Source: a virus
DNA: 64,000 nucleotides
Virus record (IMG/VR): IMGVR_UViG_3300026290_000001
Strand: one strand, 5' to 3'
This document shows positions 4,791-63,980 of the stretch, in pieces (positions within the stretch are counted from its first letter, which is position 1; each line of letters opens with the position of its first letter). Under the pieces are notes generated by a model. That model did no database searches, was not told where the DNA came from, and was given only the letters and a program-made list of their open reading frames with translations. Made by a program: the position numbers and the translations under genes.

Positions 4791-5069
4791 ATGACAAAAC
4801 AATACTTTAAAATCATATCATTAAATAATACCAGAGCAATAGAATTAGAAAGATACGGAGATTTCAACGAAGAATATCATCAGAAATATATTGGTCAAAT
4901 AGGCTATATGATAGGTCACTCTATATCAGATAAAAGTATATTTAAAGATTTTAAATGTTTGATCACTAAAACAGATAATATGGGTAGGCCATTAGATGGT
5001 GATTGGTTCCATAAAGACGATTTGGAAAAAGTGAAAAGAAAGGAGGAAATATTAATATGGCAGAAATAA
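4791..5069 (+). CDS. hypothetical protein
   Basis: ORF with RBS AAGGAGG. Confidence 0.3.
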   Translation: MTKQYFKIISLNNTRAIELERYGDFNEEYHQKYIGQIGYMIGHSISDKSIFKDFKCLITKTDNMGRPLDGDWFHKDDLEKVKRKEEILIWQK

Positions 5070-5133
5070 TTGCCATAAACCATAAACATCTAATTAAAAC
5101 AATAAAATAAATATGGAGGTAATAAATTATTGA

Positions 5134-22448: not shown

Positions 22449-23741
22449 TCAGTCATGAGATGAATTGGCTCTGTTCTGTTCATATATAATCCATGATTTT
22501 CTTGCATTAATTCTTTGCATGTTAGATATTTTCGGTGTCTTCATACCTCTGGGTGCATTACTAAAATCTATTTTTTCACCATCTATACCCATAAGAATGG
22601 CATAACCCGTAGACATTCTACCTTTAATAAAATATTCATTACCTATATACCTTACTTTATCAAACTTCCTAAATCCTTCTATTTTACCTGTAGGTATCTT
22701 CTGATGACTTCTTACTCCTTTTGCCTGTTGGTAATCGCCTTTAGGGATACACTTTTTTAATACAGCTTTTTCAGTTTTAAAGCTTACATCAATTAACCCT
22801 ATATCTTCAATATTATTTAAACAGGCAATAGCTACAGCATCGTAGTAATGCTCTTTTGGTAATCCCATTAGCTGTCTATGTTCTTTGGTAATAAATCCAA
22901 AGGTTTCTTTTGCATTTGGTAGCTGTCTTAATAATTGTTGTCTTATACTATTCATCTGTGTTGTGTGTTTTAATTGTCCTTTAATTTTACCATTCTTCTT
23001 TAATTTAATTCCTCCTTTGTGCAAACTATTATGACAAGTTTTACAAAGTGTAATTAAATTTTCTGCATCATCTGAGCCACCATTTTTTCTAAAAACTATA
23101 TGATGTACCTCTAATCTGCTGTCTTTACTTTTTCCTTTGCAATACTGGCAAATATATTTATCTCTACTTAATACATAAGCTTTAGTATTAGCAAATCCAT
23201 AATTAGTTCCTTTTTGATAAAGCCATTTATTACTTAATACTGCTGGATTTTTTAAAGCATGTGGGTCAAATGTTGCTGTTTCTATTATTATATTTGTAAT
23301 GGGCATTATTGATTTTGCAAAATCAATTTCTTTTAAGTGTGAATTAATTTTACTTGTCATTGTAGGAGAAAATCTATCTTTTTTAATGCTGTTTTTCCTA
23401 TTATTAAATCTAGGTTCCCTATATCTAGTTTTCCTATTCCTTCTAGTTCTCCTATATTTAGCTCTTTTGTCCATTTTGTCAGATATATCATTTCTAATTT
23501 CTACTTCTGATATATAATACACTTCATTTTCGTCATTTGCTACTGCACTTCCTATTTTACTACTACCAGTATCAATTCCTAAAGTTAAATCTTGTGTATA
23601 GTCTGTAGCATGATATAGTAATTTAATTGTAAATGGAGTTCTTCTTATGCATTTTGCTTTACCATCTTTTAACAATAATCTTGCTATTGCTGGTTTACAA
23701 GGCATTAAAGGACTCCCATCTTCATTAATTACATAAACCAT
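22449..23741 (-). CDS. iscB: IscB-type RNA-guided nuclease (OMEGA system effector; PLMP + split RuvC + HNH)
   Basis: N-terminal PLMP motif (GSPLMPCKPAIARLLLKDGKA), RuvC-I LGIDTGSSKIG, Arg-rich bridge RRTRRNRKTRYREPR, RuvC-II IIIETATFD, HNH CQYCKGK...EVHHIVFRKNGGSDDAENLITLCKTCH, RuvC-III HYYDAVAIA. Confidence 0.75.
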   Translation of the reverse strand: MVYVINEDGSPLMPCKPAIARLLLKDGKAKCIRRTPFTIKLLYHATDYTQDLTLGIDTGSSKIGSAVANDENEVYYISEVEIRNDISDKMDKRAKYRRTRRNRKTRYREPRFNNRKNSIKKDRFSPTMTSKINSHLKEIDFAKSIMPITNIIIETATFDPHALKNPAVLSNKWLYQKGTNYGFANTKAYVLSRDKYICQYCKGKSKDSRLEVHHIVFRKNGGSDDAENLITLCKTCHNSLHKGGIKLKKNGKIKGQLKHTTQMNSIRQQLLRQLPNAKETFGFITKEHRQLMGLPKEHYYDAVAIACLNNIEDIGLIDVSFKTEKAVLKKCIPKGDYQQAKGVRSHQKIPTGKIEGFRKFDKVRYIGNEYFIKGRMSTGYAILMGIDGEKIDFSNAPRGMKTPKISNMQRINARKSWIIYEQNRANSSHD

Positions 23742-24030
23742 AAAATCAAATCCTTTCGGATAAATACTCTGCTTAAAAGCAGGTTATGCGTATCTATATA
23801 CTATTACCATATATAGAATTCGTCCTCATCTCGACAATGATAAAATAGCTTATATGTATATCACACCGAGCCTTACCCTCCAACTCTACTTAGTGATATA
23901 CGATAGAGCAATGGTCTGATGCGTCAACCAAAGGTATCATAACTATTCTATCGTAGTATAAATTTCTCTATACTAAGTCTGGTGAACTTAGACTTTAGAA
24001 GCCTCCGACTTTAGTCGGGGGTAGTTCACT
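23742..24030 (-). ncRNA. candidate omega-RNA scaffold upstream of iscB
   Basis: About 285 nt with no ORF, GC-enriched relative to surroundings, several stem-loops on the - strand (cccccgact-aaa-gtcggagg; ctaagt-tcaccag-acttag; ctgct-ttta-agcag) directly 5' of iscB. Confidence 0.45.
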
Positions 24031-56599: not shown

Positions 56600-56675
56600 T
56601 GGAGCCGAGTATAGGATTTGAACCCATAATCTGTTGTTTACAAGACAACTGCCTTATCAATTTGGCTAACCCGGC
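56600..56675 (-). tRNA. tRNA-Thr (anticodon UGU), CCA encoded
   Basis: 76-nt cloverleaf folded by hand: 7-bp acceptor stem, T-arm with TTCAAAT loop, anticodon stem GTTGT/ACAAC with loop CTTGTAA. Confidence 0.7.
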
Positions 56676-57571: not shown

Positions 57572-57724
57572 AGTTAATCTATAACTCCTTTATTATTTAT
57601 TGTAATAAAAAATAAAAACTAATAAACATATCGACCAAATATTTATTAGCAATATTTATATTGATACTATATTCATTACATACAAATACTTATTTTTTTA
57701 AATAGTGTTGATATATTGGGATTG

Positions 57725-58546
57725 TTAAGGATTTTCTATTACTTTAGCAGGTCTATATTTATCTTTATAATTATGCCATGCTTTTCTCTGCCATTCTAAT
57801 TGTTTTTCCCTCCAACAACTCCTACAAAATTTTCTTCTATTAGATGTTGCTTTTATTAATTTTCCACATTCATTACAATTAATAATTTTTGGATTACCAT
57901 TATACAAATCAAAGTAATATCCAATATTATCAAAGGTAGTTATTTCAAAAACTACTATTCCATTTTCCTTGATATTATTCATAAATATAAGATGAATTTT
58001 CCCCTTCATTCTAACATCAACCAATCCTAAAATCTCTAATTCATTAATTATGGCATTTATTTTATACTCATTATTAGATATTTTAGACACTTCTAATATC
58101 TCATTATATGTATTTTGATTACCACTTATATAATTATATTTTAAAACATTTCCGTATTTTAATTTATGTATTTCTTTATATATCTTCATTTCTACTAACA
58201 AAACAAACAGAATTTTTTTATAATTATACTCTATATCTAAATTATTAATGTATTCAATTTCTTCGTTTGTTATAGGAATACTATCAATAATTATTAAAGG
58301 GTTATCTTTTCTACCTCCTTTTTTGAGTGCAGTATTAATTTGTTTGAAATATAAAACATCATTGAAATTAACTATATACTTCTTGCAAAATTCATATAAT
58401 TTTTCTTTTCGTTGTTTAGGTTTTATGCCAAGTTTTTTCCAATATTTAACTAACAAAACCAATTCATAATTATGACGTTCAGTTAAAAATCCATGTTGTT
58501 CAATTTGTTTTGCATATTCTTCTTCATTGTATTTTTCTTGAATCAA
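57725..58546 (-). CDS. hypothetical protein with C-terminal zinc finger
   Basis: CNECGK...CRSC motif. Confidence 0.3.
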   Translation of the reverse strand: MIQEKYNEEEYAKQIEQHGFLTERHNYELVLLVKYWKKLGIKPKQRKEKLYEFCKKYIVNFNDVLYFKQINTALKKGGRKDNPLIIIDSIPITNEEIEYINNLDIEYNYKKILFVLLVEMKIYKEIHKLKYGNVLKYNYISGNQNTYNEILEVSKISNNEYKINAIINELEILGLVDVRMKGKIHLIFMNNIKENGIVVFEITTFDNIGYYFDLYNGNPKIINCNECGKLIKATSNRRKFCRSCWREKQLEWQRKAWHNYKDKYRPAKVIENP

Positions 58547-61347
58547 ATAATCACTTCTTCCAACTTGTACTTTTTATTCAAGTAAACAATACCCCCTTCT
58601 TTATTAGGCATGGGAAAAAATATAGATTCTTTTGTGTTTGATTTAATATTTGAAAAAATATACTTACCAAAGGAATTCCATAAAATATCTTTGTTTGAAC
58701 TTTTATATTCACAATAAAATATTTCAACTAAATAATTAGTTAATTCATATGCGTATGAACATATTTCAAACATTCTACTTTTAAAGTCATCATAAATATT
58801 ATTTACAATACGATCAGATTCTTCATCAAATTGCTCTTTGTTGGCATTTTGATTAATACCCATAGTATTCAAGTCTTTTAATTCTTTCATAAATTTTTTA
58901 TACTCATTTAATACTTTCTGATAGGTTTCTTGATTTTTAGGAATATCATTTTTCATATATAATTTATACAAATCACCTATTTTACTTGTTTTTAATTTAC
59001 TTTTAATATCAAAATCAACATTTTCAATATGTTTACACAATAAATTCATTACACTGTCACTATCAATTACTGGTAAAAATCTATAATATGCATCCACAAA
59101 AGACTGTTCTTTTTCATTACAATTTTCCTTAATTAATAGTTCATTTAATGTTAATCCAAATTTTTGCTGACTAGACAAATCGTTACTTTTGACATATTTT
59201 TTATATTTATTATAGGTATTTTTATAAAGATGAATAAAAAAATATGGATGTTTATCCAATAATATTTTATTTAAAAATTCCTTTTCTTTTTTAACTTTTT
59301 CATCATCATCTTTATAAATTTTTTGCCTTTCAATCCAAATCTTAGGAATGCCCTTAACTTTTTTACCTATTTTTGCTTTATCAATTTGAGCAGATTGAAG
59401 TTTCGTACACATTTTTAATCTATTTATCAATGTTTGATATTCCAAACTTTCTTTATTAAAAAGAGGGAGTAAGGCATAAGCACTTGTACTTTTATTTGTT
59501 ATAGAGCCTATAGTGGAACCAAAGGCGAAAAGATCAGCTTTATATAAATCTTCTTCTGTAAATACCATAGATATAGATTTAGGTGCATCATAAACCACTG
59601 GCAACTCATCTTGAAATATTGAATTTAATATTGTTTGATCAGAAGTAGTTGCAATAATATCAAAATCCCAATCACTTCCAGCCCAATTAAGAGTTTCATA
59701 ACCATGTATATTTACTATTACTCCACCATCATCACAATACTTATACCATTTATTTAATTTATCATGATTAATTAAATTTAATTTCAAATGTTCTGATTTA
59801 TAAGTAAGTGGTGCTCTCATTGAATCTACGATACAAACATTTTTTTTATTCCAATAATTACAATAATACTCTTTTTCTTTAAGCAATCCAGTAACCTTTT
59901 GCCCGCAAATATGTTGCATCATAGCATAGGGATCACTTACTAAAACCTGAAAATTTCCATCTAAAATAATTTCACCAAGACAACCTCTTTTTATGATATT
60001 GTTAGTATATTTATAAACTTTATCTCTGATATATTTATCATTTTTTAATTCATGATTAACTATCAAACTTTTTAACCAATAATTATTACTATACTTTAAA
60101 AAATATTGAATACTTTCTTGAGTTATATTTTCTCCTAATAAAAATAATAACGTATAATATATATTATCAAAATTGACCCCAGTAACCCAATCAACAAAAG
60201 GAGTACAAATCTTCTTAATATCTTTTTGGTTTAAATCCAAAGTCTGTAAAAATTGATAATTCATTTTTAATATATCATTAGGTTTTTTAGGAGAAGTTAA
60301 ACTAACACCCCATTTTAAATCATTCATCTCGCAATTATGTATATATTCTTCTAAACTACCAAACGCATTCCAAAGTTTAAATTGACTTTCCGATACAACC
60401 ACATCGATATCCCTTAAATCAACCTGTATTGGATTATTATTGTCTTTGTATATAGTATTTATTATATAATTACCATGATTTTCATTTTCACAATATTCAT
60501 CTATATCAAATACGCAGAGCATCCCTTTCAGAAAATTCTGCCTGACACAAAATTGACCAGGAATATAATCTAATCCTAATTCTTCTGCCCATTCTTTAGC
60601 TTTACTTGGTTTAATCAACCCTTGACCATCAAACCTATTAAAACTCAACTCTACTTCTTTAATTACAATATCATCATCTTTATTTTCTTCTGTTTCAGTT
60701 ACAAAATTAACATTAACTTTTTGCTTAATTTCATAATCAGGCACTACACAAAATTTAGGCGTACTTACTATTTTTGTAGATGAACCCGACAATCCTTTAT
60801 ATGCATTGTATTTAGAAGGGCATAGGGGTATATTTTTATCTCTATTATTATCTAAAATTTCATTAAGTTGATTTAAAATTTTCTCGTTGCAAAATACCAC
60901 TGTTGAAACTCTGGATTGACTGGCAGATGATGATAATCTAAAATACCGTTCAGAATTTAATAATAATCCATTTTTAAATAAATAATTATAATGTGAGTTA
61001 TGTTCCATTACTATAGTTATGTACTCAGGAATAAAAAGCATATCTAAAATATTATTTTGTAATTCTATTATTCTACTTGAGTTTTCCTTTGAATATATTT
61101 GTTTTTTTAACCTATCTCTTTCTTTATACCATTGTTCAAGTTGTATATAATTAATTTCTTTACCAGTTATTTTTCTAATACTTCTAAGAATTTGATTGTC
61201 TGATAAAGCAATTAACTCACCATTTTGTTTAGCTTGTTGTGGAGTTAATTGTATATCATACCCATATTCTTTAAGCCTAGATGATTTAAATTTCATAGTA
61301 TATAATTGTCTATTTATCAATATTTTTTGCCTCCAATAAATCTTCAT
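58543..61347 (-). CDS. large protein of unknown function (934 aa) with acidic motifs VFDIDE and SDWDFD
   Basis: Long uninterrupted ORF; no P-loop; acidic clusters could be metal-binding catalytic motifs (primase/polymerase-like), unassigned. Confidence 0.4.
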   Translation of the reverse strand: MKIYWRQKILINRQLYTMKFKSSRLKEYGYDIQLTPQQAKQNGELIALSDNQILRSIRKITGKEINYIQLEQWYKERDRLKKQIYSKENSSRIIELQNNILDMLFIPEYITIVMEHNSHYNYLFKNGLLLNSERYFRLSSSASQSRVSTVVFCNEKILNQLNEILDNNRDKNIPLCPSKYNAYKGLSGSSTKIVSTPKFCVVPDYEIKQKVNVNFVTETEENKDDDIVIKEVELSFNRFDGQGLIKPSKAKEWAEELGLDYIPGQFCVRQNFLKGMLCVFDIDEYCENENHGNYIINTIYKDNNNPIQVDLRDIDVVVSESQFKLWNAFGSLEEYIHNCEMNDLKWGVSLTSPKKPNDILKMNYQFLQTLDLNQKDIKKICTPFVDWVTGVNFDNIYYTLLFLLGENITQESIQYFLKYSNNYWLKSLIVNHELKNDKYIRDKVYKYTNNIIKRGCLGEIILDGNFQVLVSDPYAMMQHICGQKVTGLLKEKEYYCNYWNKKNVCIVDSMRAPLTYKSEHLKLNLINHDKLNKWYKYCDDGGVIVNIHGYETLNWAGSDWDFDIIATTSDQTILNSIFQDELPVVYDAPKSISMVFTEEDLYKADLFAFGSTIGSITNKSTSAYALLPLFNKESLEYQTLINRLKMCTKLQSAQIDKAKIGKKVKGIPKIWIERQKIYKDDDEKVKKEKEFLNKILLDKHPYFFIHLYKNTYNKYKKYVKSNDLSSQQKFGLTLNELLIKENCNEKEQSFVDAYYRFLPVIDSDSVMNLLCKHIENVDFDIKSKLKTSKIGDLYKLYMKNDIPKNQETYQKVLNEYKKFMKELKDLNTMGINQNANKEQFDEESDRIVNNIYDDFKSRMFEICSYAYELTNYLVEIFYCEYKSSNKDILWNSFGKYIFSNIKSNTKESIFFPMPNKEGGIVYLNKKYKLEEVII

Positions 61348-62554
61348 ACTCTAAAAAATTAAGTCCTAATTCTTTAAAATCATTCATTACATTATATTTA
61401 TAATTACGTACTTTATAATGTGAATACAATAAAGAACCACTTCTACTTTCTCGAATTCGTTTTCTAGGCATCATTAAAATATATCTATTTGCACCTTTTG
61501 ATTCAACAAATTTTAATTCCTTTAATATCAATTTTGCAAGATTAAGAATATTATCAGGATAATTATTAACCATTTTAAATCTAATATTATCAAGTTTATG
61601 ATCATCTTCTAAAAATAATAGATAAATAGGTTTATTATTAAATCGAGATAGTTCTTGCTTTAATTTATTTAATTCTAATTTTCTTTCTTCTTTATGTTTT
61701 TGGAATTGTTTAAAATATGATTCTTCATTTTTTCTAATAGTTTCTTGTCTTTTTAACTCTTTTTCCTTCTTTTTATCAGAATATTGTTTATTTTTATTAA
61801 ATACTTCTTCTGAAAGTAAAAAATTATTATTTTTAAAAATGAGTCCATTAATATCAATAATATATTTCTTAATATCTTTATCAAAAGATATTAATTTATT
61901 ATGCAACAAATGTCTTTTCTCGTTATCATAATATTTACCATTTGCAATTTTAAATCTAAAATCACTTAAGCCCAATATATTCAAATGAGTATAATTAAAC
62001 ATAAATAATTTGTACATTGGATCAAAATAAAAACCTGTAAATTGTTCTATTGCTTTATCTCTAAACCTATTTCCTATTTCTGCTTTTTCAATATATTTAT
62101 CCGTCCCTAAAATCCAAATATCATTTATATCTGCTAATTTATATAATTCATGTCTTTCTAAACATTCTGTTGCTATTGGACTACATTGAAATTCGAAAAC
62201 AAATCTTTTATCACCTATTTCAAAATACAAATCAGGTCTTTGCCTAGTTTCTGGTATATATGATTCTAACTTTATATTTGATAAACCATCTTGCTTTAAC
62301 AACCAATTATAAAGCATTATTTTACCTTTAATATGTTCGTCTGTTTCAGGTTCATAATAAATACCTTCACAATTAATATTTTTTTCTTTATGTCTAAAAT
62401 ATGGATAAACTATTTCTCCGTGACAATACTCATAAAAATTACCACAATCGGGACAAAGTAATCTATTTTCTTCAGACCATTTTTTTAGAATAAATTTATC
62501 ATATTTACCATCAAAACAATTAATAATTGTATTACCAATCTTACAAGTTAACAA
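61310..62554 (-). CDS. CoiA-like (competence protein CoiA family) nuclease-like protein
   Basis: N-terminal zinc finger CPDCG...H, then RQRPDLYFEIGDKRFVFEFQCSPIATECLERHELY...WILG matching the CoiA family signature. Confidence 0.5.
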   Translation of the reverse strand: MLTCKIGNTIINCFDGKYDKFILKKWSEENRLLCPDCGNFYEYCHGEIVYPYFRHKEKNINCEGIYYEPETDEHIKGKIMLYNWLLKQDGLSNIKLESYIPETRQRPDLYFEIGDKRFVFEFQCSPIATECLERHELYKLADINDIWILGTDKYIEKAEIGNRFRDKAIEQFTGFYFDPMYKLFMFNYTHLNILGLSDFRFKIANGKYYDNEKRHLLHNKLISFDKDIKKYIIDINGLIFKNNNFLLSEEVFNKNKQYSDKKKEKELKRQETIRKNEESYFKQFQKHKEERKLELNKLKQELSRFNNKPIYLLFLEDDHKLDNIRFKMVNNYPDNILNLAKLILKELKFVESKGANRYILMMPRKRIRESRSGSLLYSHYKVRNYKYNVMNDFKELGLNFLEYEDLLEAKNIDK

Positions 62555-62570
62555 TAAAATTATTCCTCCT

Positions 62571-62810
62571 TTAAACAGACAATATAAAAGCTAAAAAACA
62601 AAATGCGATAATGCCAATCACTATATTTGCAGTTGTATTTGCAACCGGATCAATAGTATTATTATTATTTTGCTTTACACTTGAATTTAAATAAAAATTA
62701 CTATTCCTTTTTGCATTTCTCTTTTTTCTATCATTCTCTCTTAATGCATAAGTAACTCCTCTTGCTATTGACCTATTTAAAACTCCATAATTTCTGGGTC
62801 TCATCATCAT
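62571..62810 (-). CDS. small membrane protein
   Basis: C-terminal hydrophobic helix. Confidence 0.3.
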   Translation of the reverse strand: MMMRPRNYGVLNRSIARGVTYALRENDRKKRNAKRNSNFYLNSSVKQNNNNTIDPVANTTANIVIGIIAFCFLAFILSV

Positions 62811-62830
62811 AATTTTTATTCCAACCTTCC

Positions 62831-63530: not shown

Positions 63531-63980
63531 CTATTGATTAGATAGTAATTTTTCTTTATGTTCCCTTACACGTTTAATTGCTAAATTAAAATATTGATCA
63601 TGTGGTTCACTCAGACTCCATTCAAAACCTATGTAATTTCTTTCAGTATTTAAACAAGCTATCGCTGTTGTGCCTGAACCTATGCAATTATCTAAGACTA
63701 AATCTCCTTCATTTGTATATGTTTTAATTAGATATTCAAATAATTTTACTGGTTTTTGAGTGGGGTGTGGTAATTTTTCTTTAGAATTTGAATTAACTAT
63801 AGGATTATATATTACAGTTGATGGATTTTTTAATTTTGCATTGTACACATCATAACTTCTTCCAGCATAATCTGTATTAAAAACAATTTCATTATCTTTT
63901 CTTTTTGAGATAGAACTTCTAAAATTAATATTATTATTTTCTTGCATTTGTTTCATTCTTTCGCTTTTACGTTCTATCAT
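63531..63980 (-). CDS. DNA methyltransferase C-terminal portion (N6/N4 beta-class; AdoMet-binding FxGSGTT region) - possibly truncated or split
   Basis: HPTQKPVKLFEYLIKTYTNEGDLVLDNCIGSGTTAIA matches the TQKP...DPFxGSGTT region; no DPPY-type catalytic motif in the 149 aa, and an in-frame stop lies just upstream of the ATG. Confidence 0.5.
   Translation of the reverse strand: MIERKSERMKQMQENNNINFRSSISKRKDNEIVFNTDYAGRSYDVYNAKLKNPSTVIYNPIVNSNSKEKLPHPTQKPVKLFEYLIKTYTNEGDLVLDNCIGSGTTAIACLNTERNYIGFEWSLSEPHDQYFNLAIKRVREHKEKLLSNQ

Follow-up and report, generated by a model that had tools for sequence, protein, structure and literature searches.

The 934-amino-acid reading frame and its start codon

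The window, a 64,000-nucleotide stretch of viral DNA to which all positions refer, raises the question of what is encoded by a large open reading frame (ORF) that lies on the minus strand at 58543..61347, opens at an ATG at 61347 and specifies 934 amino acids. The sequence-only reading, which described this ORF exactly as it exists, had suggested a nucleotidyl-transfer enzyme of an uncharacterised type that serves either replication or transcription. Our analysis points to a more specific answer. The ORF is best explained, with a probability that we put at roughly 0.85, as encoding a two-barrel (double-psi beta-barrel), single-subunit, DNA-dependent RNA polymerase (RNAP) of the YonO family with a role in late-gene transcription, a family that shares its superfamily with the cellular multisubunit RNAPs and the RNA-dependent RNA polymerases (RdRPs) of eukaryotic RNAi. 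The ORF is not a chance reading frame, since at the 50% identity level it is matched by 1431 representatives at E<=1e-3 and by 398 at E<=1e-30.

The real start of the gene is probably the TTG at codon 10 (61320) rather than the first ATG, which would give a gene of 925 amino acids at 58543..61320 on the minus strand. The sequence GGAGG is located 9 nt 5' of this in-frame TTG, homologs are approximately 925 amino acids long with an alignment that begins at residue 10 of the window protein, and residues 1-9 of the AlphaFold model have pLDDT values below 50. In the relative L044, which encodes a polymerase 99% identical to that of the window, the gene was called at 925 amino acids, and collinearity between the two sequences starts at 61334, the first G of the GGAGG, upstream of which the window has an insertion. 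Throughout, polymerase residue numbers are counted from the ATG at 61347, as in the 934-amino-acid version.

The insertion (1.49 kb; 61335..62824, minus strand) lies outside the polymerase module and carries a CoiA-like gene (ORF 61310..62554) together with orf79. The CoiA-like neighbor that had been noted earlier was confirmed (PF06054, E 3e-27), but its adjacency to the polymerase is incidental, because the gene lies on an insertion that is missing from L044, the closest relative. A CoiA-like gene is found upstream of the polymerase in a minority of loci only, and its absence from L044 and from most loci led us to reject it as a functional partner. The other neighbor named earlier, a methyltransferase fragment, was likewise confirmed and corresponds to an incomplete ORF for an N6/N4 methyltransferase, located at the edge of the window.

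Assignment to the YonO family

Direct searches of Pfam, NCBIfam and PDB sequences with the window polymerase returned nothing significant, and the assignment therefore rests on PHROGs, tblastn, the comparison with YonO and the predicted fold. PHROG 8308 matches the polymerase over its full length (E 8e-166), and BLASTP aligns residues 47-624 with YonO of phage SPbeta (E 3e-25). By tblastn, SPbeta yonO was matched at E 7e-16, along with yonO genes that are annotated 'DNA-directed RNA polymerase'. The RdRP family PF05183 gave no match to the window polymerase in the Pfam search even at E<=1; it was found in 13 of the 35 aligned relatives that were scanned (best E 8.5e-14), and many homologs carry a precomputed PF05183 annotation. 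When a profile of the polymerase family was compared with PDB sequences, the only hit was a weak one to RDR2 (E 0.26), which involves the DG.G...R....KG stretch of that protein. The polymerase showed no sequence or fold match to T7-like single-subunit RNAPs (Pol A superfamily; right-hand fold, Pfam RNA_pol), and a Walker-A P-loop was not found in it, in agreement with the earlier remark that no P-loop is recognisable.

The family that unites YonO with the cellular-type RdRPs (PF05183) was described between 2003 and 2010, and the biochemistry of YonO followed in 2017 (PMC5467207, PMC2919709). The window polymerase belongs to this already known kind, so that the earlier suggestion of a non-canonical single-subunit RNA polymerase stands while that of an uncharacterised enzyme type does not. 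Most members of the family, which is found in phages and prophages and comprises more than 1400 clusters at 50% identity, are mislabelled 'RNA-dependent RNA polymerase' or hypothetical. As a separate observation, the polymerase gene of Enterocloster phage CB473P3 is interrupted, and no group I intron was detected in the interrupted gene with Rfam at E<=0.01.

The AlphaFold (AF2) model of the polymerase has a pLDDT of 90.9 and a pTM of 0.85. In a Foldseek comparison with the PDB, the top 21 matches were all RDR2 or QDE-1 (E 7e-17 to 2e-13, probability 1.00, approximately 900 columns), followed by weak matches to the beta-prime subunit of multisubunit RNAPs (E about 0.02). The best fold matches in BFVD were phage entries named 'RNA-dependent RNA polymerase'. 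The model predicts two double-psi beta-barrels in one chain, which is an RdRP-like architecture. The searches by profile and structure, which the sequence-only reading had put forward as its check, thus lead through PHROG 8308, YonO and the RDR2/QDE-1 fold to a nucleotidyl-transfer family and not to an unrelated structural or adhesin family.

Active-site residues

In Qde1, the residue set of two-barrel RNAPs consists of D709, R738, K743, R962, P964 and D1007/1009/1011 (PMC2919709). The window polymerase contains all eight invariant residues (D240, R269, K274, R511, P513, D559, D561 and D563) at a spacing of 29/5/2/48, compared with 29/5/2/45 in Qde1, and these residues are kept in 107-109 of 109 diverse relatives and are likewise invariant in alignments A1 and A2. 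The signature of the first, beta-like barrel (60523..60630, minus strand) comprises D240-G241 (60625-60630) and R269-x4-K274-G275 (60523-60543); R269 is present in 107 of the 109 relatives, and D240, G241, K274 and G275 are present in every one. D240, R269 and K274 correspond to D709, R738 and K743 of Qde1, with identical spacing (29 and 5). Ahead of the DxDxD barrel lies an invariant R-x-P, encoded by the R511-A-P513 codons (59809..59817, minus strand), both residues of which are found in 109/109 relatives and have counterparts in R962/P964 of Qde1 and R446/P448 of Rpb1 (PMC2919709).

The second, beta-prime-like double-psi beta-barrel contains the predicted catalytic, Mg-binding Asp triad, D559-W-D561-F-D563 (59659..59673, minus strand), with all three aspartates unchanged across the 109 relatives. 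DWDFD (559-563) is the sole DxDxD of the window polymerase and aligns on the DNDGD of YonO, a 3D>3N mutant of which has no activity (PMC5467207). This alignment and invariance bear out the earlier selection of SDWDFD (558-563) as a candidate catalytic motif. The canonical D-b-D-G-D, with Gly at position 4, is absent from the window polymerase, which has D-W-D-F-D. Gly occupies position 562 in 75/109 relatives, the remainder having F, Y, M, L, V or S, and in the clade of the window this residue is hydrophobic. Phe562 marks a clade variant that does not exclude the polymerase from the superfamily, and the broader DxDxD signature is present.

A second motif that had been nominated as catalytic, VFDIDE at residues 279-284 (60496..60513, minus strand), lies exactly at that position, but only 4 of 109 relatives keep D283, and we therefore rejected it as a second catalytic DxD. 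The motif forms the strand directly after the KG element of the conserved R269-x4-K274-G275; F280 and D281 are each conserved in 93/109 relatives and E284 in 31/109, and YonO shows PFDFRK at this position.

A probable role in late-gene transcription

The gene order in the window, all on the minus strand, is polymerase, a 273-amino-acid partner, small ORFs, tRNA, metallophosphoesterase, a YonG_N-like 384-amino-acid ORF, terminase and portal, and the same order is found in Bacillus phage BUCT082, L043 and L044. SPbeta, too, has the polymerase followed by metallophosphoesterase, YonG-like gene, terminase and portal. The genome is SPbeta-like, and the polymerase heads its late strand (terminase, portal, tail), where it precedes the SPbeta-like late operon (YonK/YonG/terminase/portal) in the same orientation. 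A megablast search with 24 kb of the window found no match among phage genomes, and therefore no deposited genome is closely related to the phage; its lineage (L040, L043, L044) is known from metagenomes only.

In SPbeta, late-gene transcription cannot proceed without YonO, which is strictly a DNA-dependent RNAP; its expression follows induction, and late genes require it whereas early genes do not (PMC5467207). By analogy, the window polymerase probably transcribes the late genes of its phage. As inferred from YonO, infection or induction would be followed by its synthesis from transcripts of the host RNAP, and it would then, beginning at a phage-specific start site, processively transcribe the late operon that lies downstream. 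On the basis of YonO biochemistry, D559/D561/D563 would bind the catalytic Mg2+, and R269/K274 would contact the NTP and the RNA 3' end.

The nearest solved structures are RNAi RdRPs, relatives have PF05183 and bear the annotation 'RNA-dependent RNA polymerase', and QDE-1 is represented in the PDB, according to the entry titles, by complexes with RNA as well as with DNA templates. These points would be consistent with an enzyme that copies or amplifies RNA, e.g., phage or host small RNAs, instead of transcribing DNA. However, the annotations of the relatives just propagate the Pfam name, whereas YonO, the sole characterised member from bacteria or phages, has a strict preference for DNA as template and is the transcriptase of the late operon, and the window gene heads the late operon of a dsDNA phage exactly as yonO does. 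We consider RNA copying very unlikely.

A virion-packaged RNAP, injected with the DNA for transcription of early genes like N4 vRNAP, crAss-like gp66 or P23-45 gp96, would fit the superfamily that the polymerase has in common with the crAss-like gp66 and P23-45 RNAPs, as well as its location on the late strand, and virion association had been raised by the sequence-only reading. Compared with the RDR2/QDE-1 matches, however, crAss-like proteins resemble the fold only weakly (E 1e-5 to 1e-3; phi14:2 gp66 E 0.58 in BFVD). Furthermore, YonO appears on induction and serves late rather than early genes, and the window polymerase is a stand-alone 925-amino-acid protein, encoded upstream of, not within, the structural block and not part of a giant virion polyprotein, all of which leaves packaging in the virion with only a small chance of being correct. 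The primase-polymerase, or other DxD-using replication enzyme, that had been offered as an option on the strength of acidic DxD-type motifs and DNA-metabolism neighbors (CoiA-like nuclease, methyltransferase) is as good as refuted by the assignment of fold and active site, as searches of Pfam, PHROGs, NCBIfam, PDB sequences and folds gave no AEP/PrimPol, Toprim or polymerase A/B match, VFDIDE is not conserved, and the CoiA-like gene is a recent insertion. Taken together, we favor a DNA-dependent RNAP that transcribes the late genes.

A coupled partner gene encodes a candidate polymerase subunit

Directly downstream of the polymerase gene is the partner gene (57725..58546, minus strand), which encodes 273 amino acids (pI 9.2) and begins at a TTG that overlaps the polymerase stop codon (TTGA). 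The partner has winged-helix domains and, at its C-terminus, a zinc ribbon with four Cys as well as a basic helix. The ribbon, C224-x2-C227...C241-x2-C244 (CNECGKLIKATSNRRKFCRSC; 57815..57877, minus strand), has four Cys that are all invariant (22/22), and it is homologous to residues 799-819 of YonO (BLASTP E 1e-5; hhalign probability 92.9%, E 3.6e-7). The partner gene is translationally coupled to the polymerase gene, as measured in 36 loci.

These features are open to two interpretations. The partner may be a polymerase subunit for recognition of DNA (the promoter) or for initiation, of which the ribbon alone survives in SPbeta, on the C-terminus of YonO, and the likely target of which is an element just downstream; we put this at about even odds. 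Alternatively, the neighbor may be no polymerase subunit and merely be co-transcribed, as an independent late-operon DNA-binding regulator (repressing or activating transcription by host RNAP) or as a protein resembling replication initiators, which has a substantial chance of being correct that is nevertheless well short of even. Three findings argue against the second interpretation. The start/stop overlap with the polymerase gene is found in most loci; the entire partner is fused covalently to the polymerase in P0130 and P0291 (one lineage, 6 contigs), and the ribbon is fused in YonO; and the linkage, unlike that to the other neighbors, which vary, spans Bacillaceae to Lachnospiraceae and polymerase identities as low as about 28-32%.

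Extending the subunit interpretation, we tentatively propose, with somewhat less than even confidence, that YonO-type RNAPs are not truly single-component but use a dedicated winged-helix and zinc-ribbon promoter or initiation factor, which acts on a TTCTATCTTATGRAAG-type element directly downstream of the module. The factor would take the form of a separate 273-amino-acid protein here, of a full fusion in P0130 and P0291 and of a C-terminal ribbon in SPbeta YonO, and, serving a minimal RNAP, it would be functionally analogous to sigma, TFB or TFE. TFE/TFIIE-alpha, a transcription-factor type with a winged helix and a zinc ribbon, serves here as an analogy only.

A conserved element downstream of the module

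The intergenic region at 57572..57724 (minus strand) separates the module from the first small late-strand ORF downstream of it, and at 57670-57685 it contains a diverged copy (TTGTATGTAATGAATA) of an element that is conserved at the same position in relatives and has a TTATGRAAG core. With low confidence, we regard this element as a candidate late promoter or operator. Motif discovery gave a log-likelihood (LL) of 124.6 compared with 46-54 for shuffles, and in another run 174.6 compared with 60-70, and in 14 of 31 loci the element outscores every other site of the locus; for the copy in the window the score is only 6.8 bits. The window variant (ATGTAATGAATA) is not enriched in the window, where 3 matches were found and 2.6 were expected. 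Folding of 24 sites gave no clear indication of a hairpin or palindrome at the conserved element (mean z -0.9, with only 8/24 below -1.5).

In SPbeta, the start site of YonO, mapped at coordinate 2225998 of B. subtilis 168, is bracketed by primer-extension primers (L001 5760-5951), and the bracketed region contains TCATTTATGAGGGTG. A core matrix does not single out the TCATTTATGAGGGTG site in AT-rich DNA, and the element is not tied to the start site. SPbeta also has two copies of TCATTTATGARGG. A scan of 54-64 kb of the window for sigma-70 promoters and terminators performed no better than on shuffles.

Implications

Although unannotated, the polymerase is unexceptional within a characterised family, and its description changes from 'hypothetical protein' to likely late-gene transcriptase of an SPbeta-like phage of a low-GC host. 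What is new in this analysis is the coupling of the partner, the fusions and a possible role of the partner in initiation or specificity. Because translational coupling, an independent full-length fusion and a ribbon fused in YonO coincide, the partner hypothesis is concrete and testable, and it bears on promoter recognition by minimal relatives of the cellular RNAPs and on models of ancestral RNA polymerases. How YonO finds its promoter is a question left open by Forrest et al. 2017 (PMC5467207), and a dedicated factor, if it exists, would answer it. The clade-specific swap of the near-universal Gly of DxDGD for a bulky hydrophobic residue is an experiment made by nature on the active site of two-barrel enzymes.

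Comparison with known systems

The eukaryotic RdRPs QDE-1 and RDR2 function in RNA silencing, with RNA or ssDNA as template. QDE-1 (2J7N) and RDR2 (7W82, 7ROZ), which represent PF05183, are the best structural matches to the predicted model, over approximately 900 columns at TM scores of 0.4-0.5. They share with the window polymerase the order of the barrels in one chain, the eight invariant residues and near-identical spacing, and they differ in their sequence (10-15% identity) and in having neither a phage late-operon context nor a winged-helix/zinc-ribbon partner. Among other phage two-barrel single-subunit RNAPs, the crAss-like phi14:2 gp66 (6VR4) and P23-45 gp64/gp96 (PMC10770324) belong to the same superfamily and use the same DxDxD chemistry, and the general DxDxD signature allows a non-Gly residue at position 4. 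In contrast to the window polymerase, to which their fold similarity is weak (BFVD E 1e-5 to 0.6), these are virion or early polymerases, with gp66 and gp96 located within giant proteins (PMC10770324).

Closest to the window polymerase is a clade of approximately 925 amino acids from prophages of Bacillaceae, Paenibacillus, Clostridia and Lachnospiraceae (44-69% identity). In Bacillus phage BUCT082 (Spbetavirus), the polymerase of which is 54.6% identical to that of the window, UAW07825/UAW07826 are hypothetical proteins. BUCT082 and the clade share the D-Phi-D-Phi-D motif, the coupled partner gene and the downstream late genes with the window, the downstream element of which has diverged; their polymerases are unannotated or labelled 'RNA dependent RNA polymerase', and none is characterised.

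The characterised system most like this one is YonO of the Bacillus subtilis phage SPbeta, the catalytic core of which is homologous (E 3e-25) and has all eight active-site residues in common with the window polymerase. In both phages, large temperate siphoviruses with genomes of one type, the polymerase heads a late operon of the same type, and a conserved sequence block downstream of the polymerase gene is common to both. The two polymerases differ in sequence (23-24% identity), in length (925 amino acids in the window compared with 839 in YonO) and in the catalytic motif, which is D-W-D-F-D in the window and D-N-D-G-D in YonO. Finally, YonO has its own C-terminal 4-Cys ribbon (799-819), whereas the ribbon of the window is on the separate 273-amino-acid protein, which is absent as a gene in SPbeta.

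A YonO-family RNA polymerase encoded in the window

The 934-aa ORF at 58543..61347 on the minus strand, which the sequence-only reading had put forward as a possible nucleotidyl-transfer enzyme, was found where claimed, with VFDIDE at residues 279-284 and SDWDFD at residues 558-563 (counted from the ATG at 61347). As that reading had also held, the protein lacks a P-loop: no Walker-A motif was found in it. Searching Pfam and NCBIfam with the protein gave no match, and PHROG 8308 (function unknown) covers it end to end (E 8e-166). BLASTP aligned residues 47-624 with YonO of the Bacillus subtilis prophage SPbeta (E 3e-25), placing D559-W-D-F-D563, the sole DxDxD of the protein, opposite D-N-D-G-D of YonO. 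YonO is a biochemically proven RNA polymerase (RNAP) that is strictly DNA-dependent and processive, has an essential Asp triad, and is needed for transcription of the 37 late genes of SPbeta (Forrest et al., 2017; PMC5467207). Using tblastn, we matched 40 deposited phage records, with Spbetavirus BUCT082 at the top (54.6% identity, annotated hypothetical). The matches included 20-odd SPbeta-group phages at yonO, annotated "DNA-directed RNA polymerase" in some, and Clostridium phage c-st and Enterocloster, Thomasclavelia and Psychrobacillus phages, annotated "RNA-dependent RNA polymerase". The family is large: a word-indexed search returned 1041 matches, many with the RdRP family PF05183, and an exhaustive search returned 1431 representatives at the 50% identity level; PF05183 matched 13 of 35 aligned members.

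Eight residues are invariant across all two-barrel RNAPs, which in the eukaryotic RdRP Qde1 are D709, R738, K743, R962, P964 and D1007/1009/1011 (Ruprich-Robert and Thuriaux, 2010; PMC2919709). We aligned the query and YonO with 107 full-length representatives of mutual identity <=50% (n=109), in which D240, K274, R511, P513, D559, D561 and D563 are each kept in 109/109 and R269 in 107/109. The spacing is 29/5/2/48, versus 29/5/2/45 in Qde1. VFDIDE had been proposed as a second catalytic DxD, a role that did not survive the alignment: D283 is Asp in only 4 of 109 sequences and E284 is kept in 31, while F280 and D281 are kept in 93 each. VFDIDE is the strand after the R-x4-K-G element, and no DxD metal site. 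Position 562 is Gly in 75/109, and F, Y, M, L or V in the window's clade.

An AlphaFold2 model built from 83 homologs had a mean pLDDT of 90.9 and a pTM of 0.85. The best 21 Foldseek matches in the PDB were all chains of the eukaryotic RdRPs RDR2 or QDE-1 (E 7e-17 to 2e-13, probability 1.00, about 900 aligned columns, TM 0.4-0.5), followed by multisubunit RNAP beta-prime chains at E ~0.02; the PDB copy held no YonO-family structure. Among viral predicted structures, the model best matched phage entries named "RNA-dependent RNA polymerase", whereas crAss-like proteins matched weakly (RNAP gp66 of phi14:2, E 0.58). Taken together, these results show that the ORF product is a two-barrel RNAP of the YonO family in which the active site is complete. 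The gene stands first in a late operon of the SPbeta type, and the enzyme is a new, unannotated member of an already known family.

Gene start and genome context

The real start of the polymerase is probably not the first ATG. An in-frame TTG at codon 10 (61320) has GGAGG 9 nt upstream, homologs are about 925 aa with alignment beginning at residue 10, and the model shows residues 1-9 as disordered. In L044, a contig with a 99%-identical polymerase, the gene is called at 925 aa, and DNA collinearity with the window begins exactly at the first G of GGAGG (61334). A 1.49-kb segment (61335-62824) containing the CoiA-like gene and orf79 is missing from L044; this insertion stops exactly at the polymerase ribosome-binding site, producing the spurious upstream ATG. 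Because the segment is missing there and only some loci have a CoiA-like gene upstream of the polymerase, the adjacency, previously read as a clue to function, is incidental. In L040-L042 and BUCT082 this position is taken by larger genes that contain CoiA_N, a pattern suggestive of a cassette that moves or can be exchanged.

The window has low GC (24-37%) and a strand switch near 12 kb. Its minus-strand order is methyltransferase fragment, small ORFs, CoiA-like gene, polymerase, a 273-aa ORF (hereafter the partner), 69-aa and 128-aa ORFs, tRNA-Thr, metallophosphoesterase, a 102-aa and then a 384-aa ORF (YonG_N in its homologs), terminase large subunit, portal and tail genes, a layout shared with SPbeta and BUCT082. 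No close DNA match was found among deposited phages, and the nearest contigs are metagenomic. The 128-aa ORF and the metallophosphoesterase gene are 306 nt apart, and the tRNA-Thr (anticodon TGT; 56600-56675, minus) is encoded between them, within the presumed late transcription unit; the YonO-dependent SPbeta transcript likewise starts with an unannotated non-coding RNA (Forrest et al., 2017; PMC5467207). The 149-aa methyltransferase ORF (63531-63980, minus) corresponds to just the C-terminal half of the N6_N4_Mtase profile (positions 115-212 of 221), and since its L044 homolog has 237 aa, it may have been truncated by a disruption near the window edge. The late region also holds an IscB-type element (22449-24029, minus), in which a HEARO/omega RNA (RF02033, 121.7 bits, 23819-24029) directly precedes a 430-aa ORF (22449..23741) with RRXRR (E 2e-54) and HNH domains.

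The polymerase gene of many relatives is broken at the catalytic motif. Roughly twelve representatives (P0136, P0153, P0199, P0208, P0266 and others) stop at query residues 559-563 or begin at 560, and PHROGs 25339 and 35857 are the two halves of the polymerase. In Enterocloster phage CB473P3 (L003, 2344-3519), an insertion of about 436 nt directly follows D563, and another, of about 480 nt, comes after residue 650. This pattern suggests either introns or homing elements aimed at the active site, or genes that are truly split; an Rfam scan of the interrupted CB473P3 gene detected no group I intron (E<=0.01). Close homologs of the Firmicute-type module also occur on short contigs (L004, L023, L024, L036) that record titles place in Muribaculaceae, Thiopseudomonas, Cyanobacteria and Methanothrix MAGs; mis-binning of phage contigs is the probable explanation, rather than true host association.

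A conserved DNA element downstream of the module

Most loci carry a motif 24-76 nt past the partner stop codon: a T-rich stretch followed by TTCTATCTTATGRAAG, in which the ATG is almost invariant. Unbiased expectation-maximisation recovered the motif with log-likelihoods of 124.6 at width 16 (46-54 for shuffles) and 174.6 at width 22 (60-70 for shuffles). Using a matrix trained on these same sites, and thus with some circularity, the site ranked best in 14 of 31 loci, and among the top 4 in 22 of 31, when the whole ~15-kb locus was scored on both strands. As read from the sequences, the motif is not preceded by a Shine-Dalgarno and the ORFs after it are of arbitrary length, which rules it out as a gene start. 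A second common block, AAACCCTTGATATTACTGGGTTT..GCACTTTT, lies upstream and can be traced by eye 75-135 nt past the yonO stop in SPbeta. The non-coding block as a whole, AAACCCTTG..ACTGGGTT..GCACTTTT and then TTCTATCTTATGRAAG, follows the module in Bacillaceae, Clostridia and Lachnospiraceae (first 130 nt past the partner stop in L002 and L005-L036); in SPbeta the upstream half of the block can be made out after yonO (L001, ~5030-5095).

We regard the motif as a candidate promoter or operator only, because it has diverged in the window's own lineage (TTGTATGTAATGAATA at 57670-57685, 6.8 bits), a hairpin model was not supported, and the SPbeta start site falls outside the block that follows yonO. 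The diverged form does not recur in the window beyond chance (3 matches against 2.6 expected). Published primers bracket the SPbeta start at L001 5760-5951, where TCATTTATGAGGGTG is present and was not singled out by the core matrix.

A coupled partner gene and its fusions

In the partner gene (57725..58546, minus), whose product has winged-helix domains and a zinc ribbon, the TTG start codon overlaps the stop codon of the polymerase (TTGA). Wherever both genes could be placed (n=36 loci; Bacillaceae, Paenibacillus, Clostridia, Lachnospiraceae and others), a partner homolog directly follows the polymerase on the same strand, at -11 to +2 nt from the polymerase stop in 32 of the loci. The distant loci L003, L030, L033, L035 and L037 encode the same kind of ribbon protein about 0.7-0.8 kb downstream.

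Fusions joining partner to polymerase represent two events. Among 229 full-length homologs, a C-terminal extension occurs in exactly one cluster, P0130 (1173 aa, 5 contigs) and P0291 (1176 aa), and aligns with partner residues 6-246 (34% identity, E 4e-26); these six metagenomic contigs thus encode a natural single-chain polymerase-partner fusion. The second event is a fusion of the ribbon alone to YonO: SPbeta has no separate partner gene, and YonO residues 799-819 match the partner ribbon CNECGKLIKATSNRRKFCRSC (BLASTP E 1e-5; profile comparison probability 92.9%, E 3.6e-7, 33 columns).

Discussion

By analogy with YonO, the polymerase gene would itself be expressed first by host RNAP, and its product would then make the RNA of the late operon in a Mg-dependent, DNA-templated and processive manner. 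We give about even odds (roughly 50%) to the partner being a subunit through which the enzyme recognizes DNA or initiates. The main live alternative, which concerns the partner only, is that this protein, although coupled and in places fused to the polymerase, acts as an independent regulator. For the enzyme itself, there is little to support RNA-dependent activity, the name borne by several relatives, set against the strict DNA dependence of YonO. Equally little favors a virion-packaged early polymerase, or the primase-polymerase considered earlier from the acidic motifs.

If the partner is such a subunit, it would bear on whether YonO needs additional factors to recognize promoters, a question left open by Forrest et al. 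(2017; PMC5467207); we found no description of a partner-like factor in the searchable literature. Two features of the window's clade may be new: a hydrophobic residue stands in for the Gly of DxDGD, and the partner, fused to the polymerase in other lineages, is here a separate protein from a coupled gene. These features allow a direct test of how YonO-type enzymes recognize promoters.
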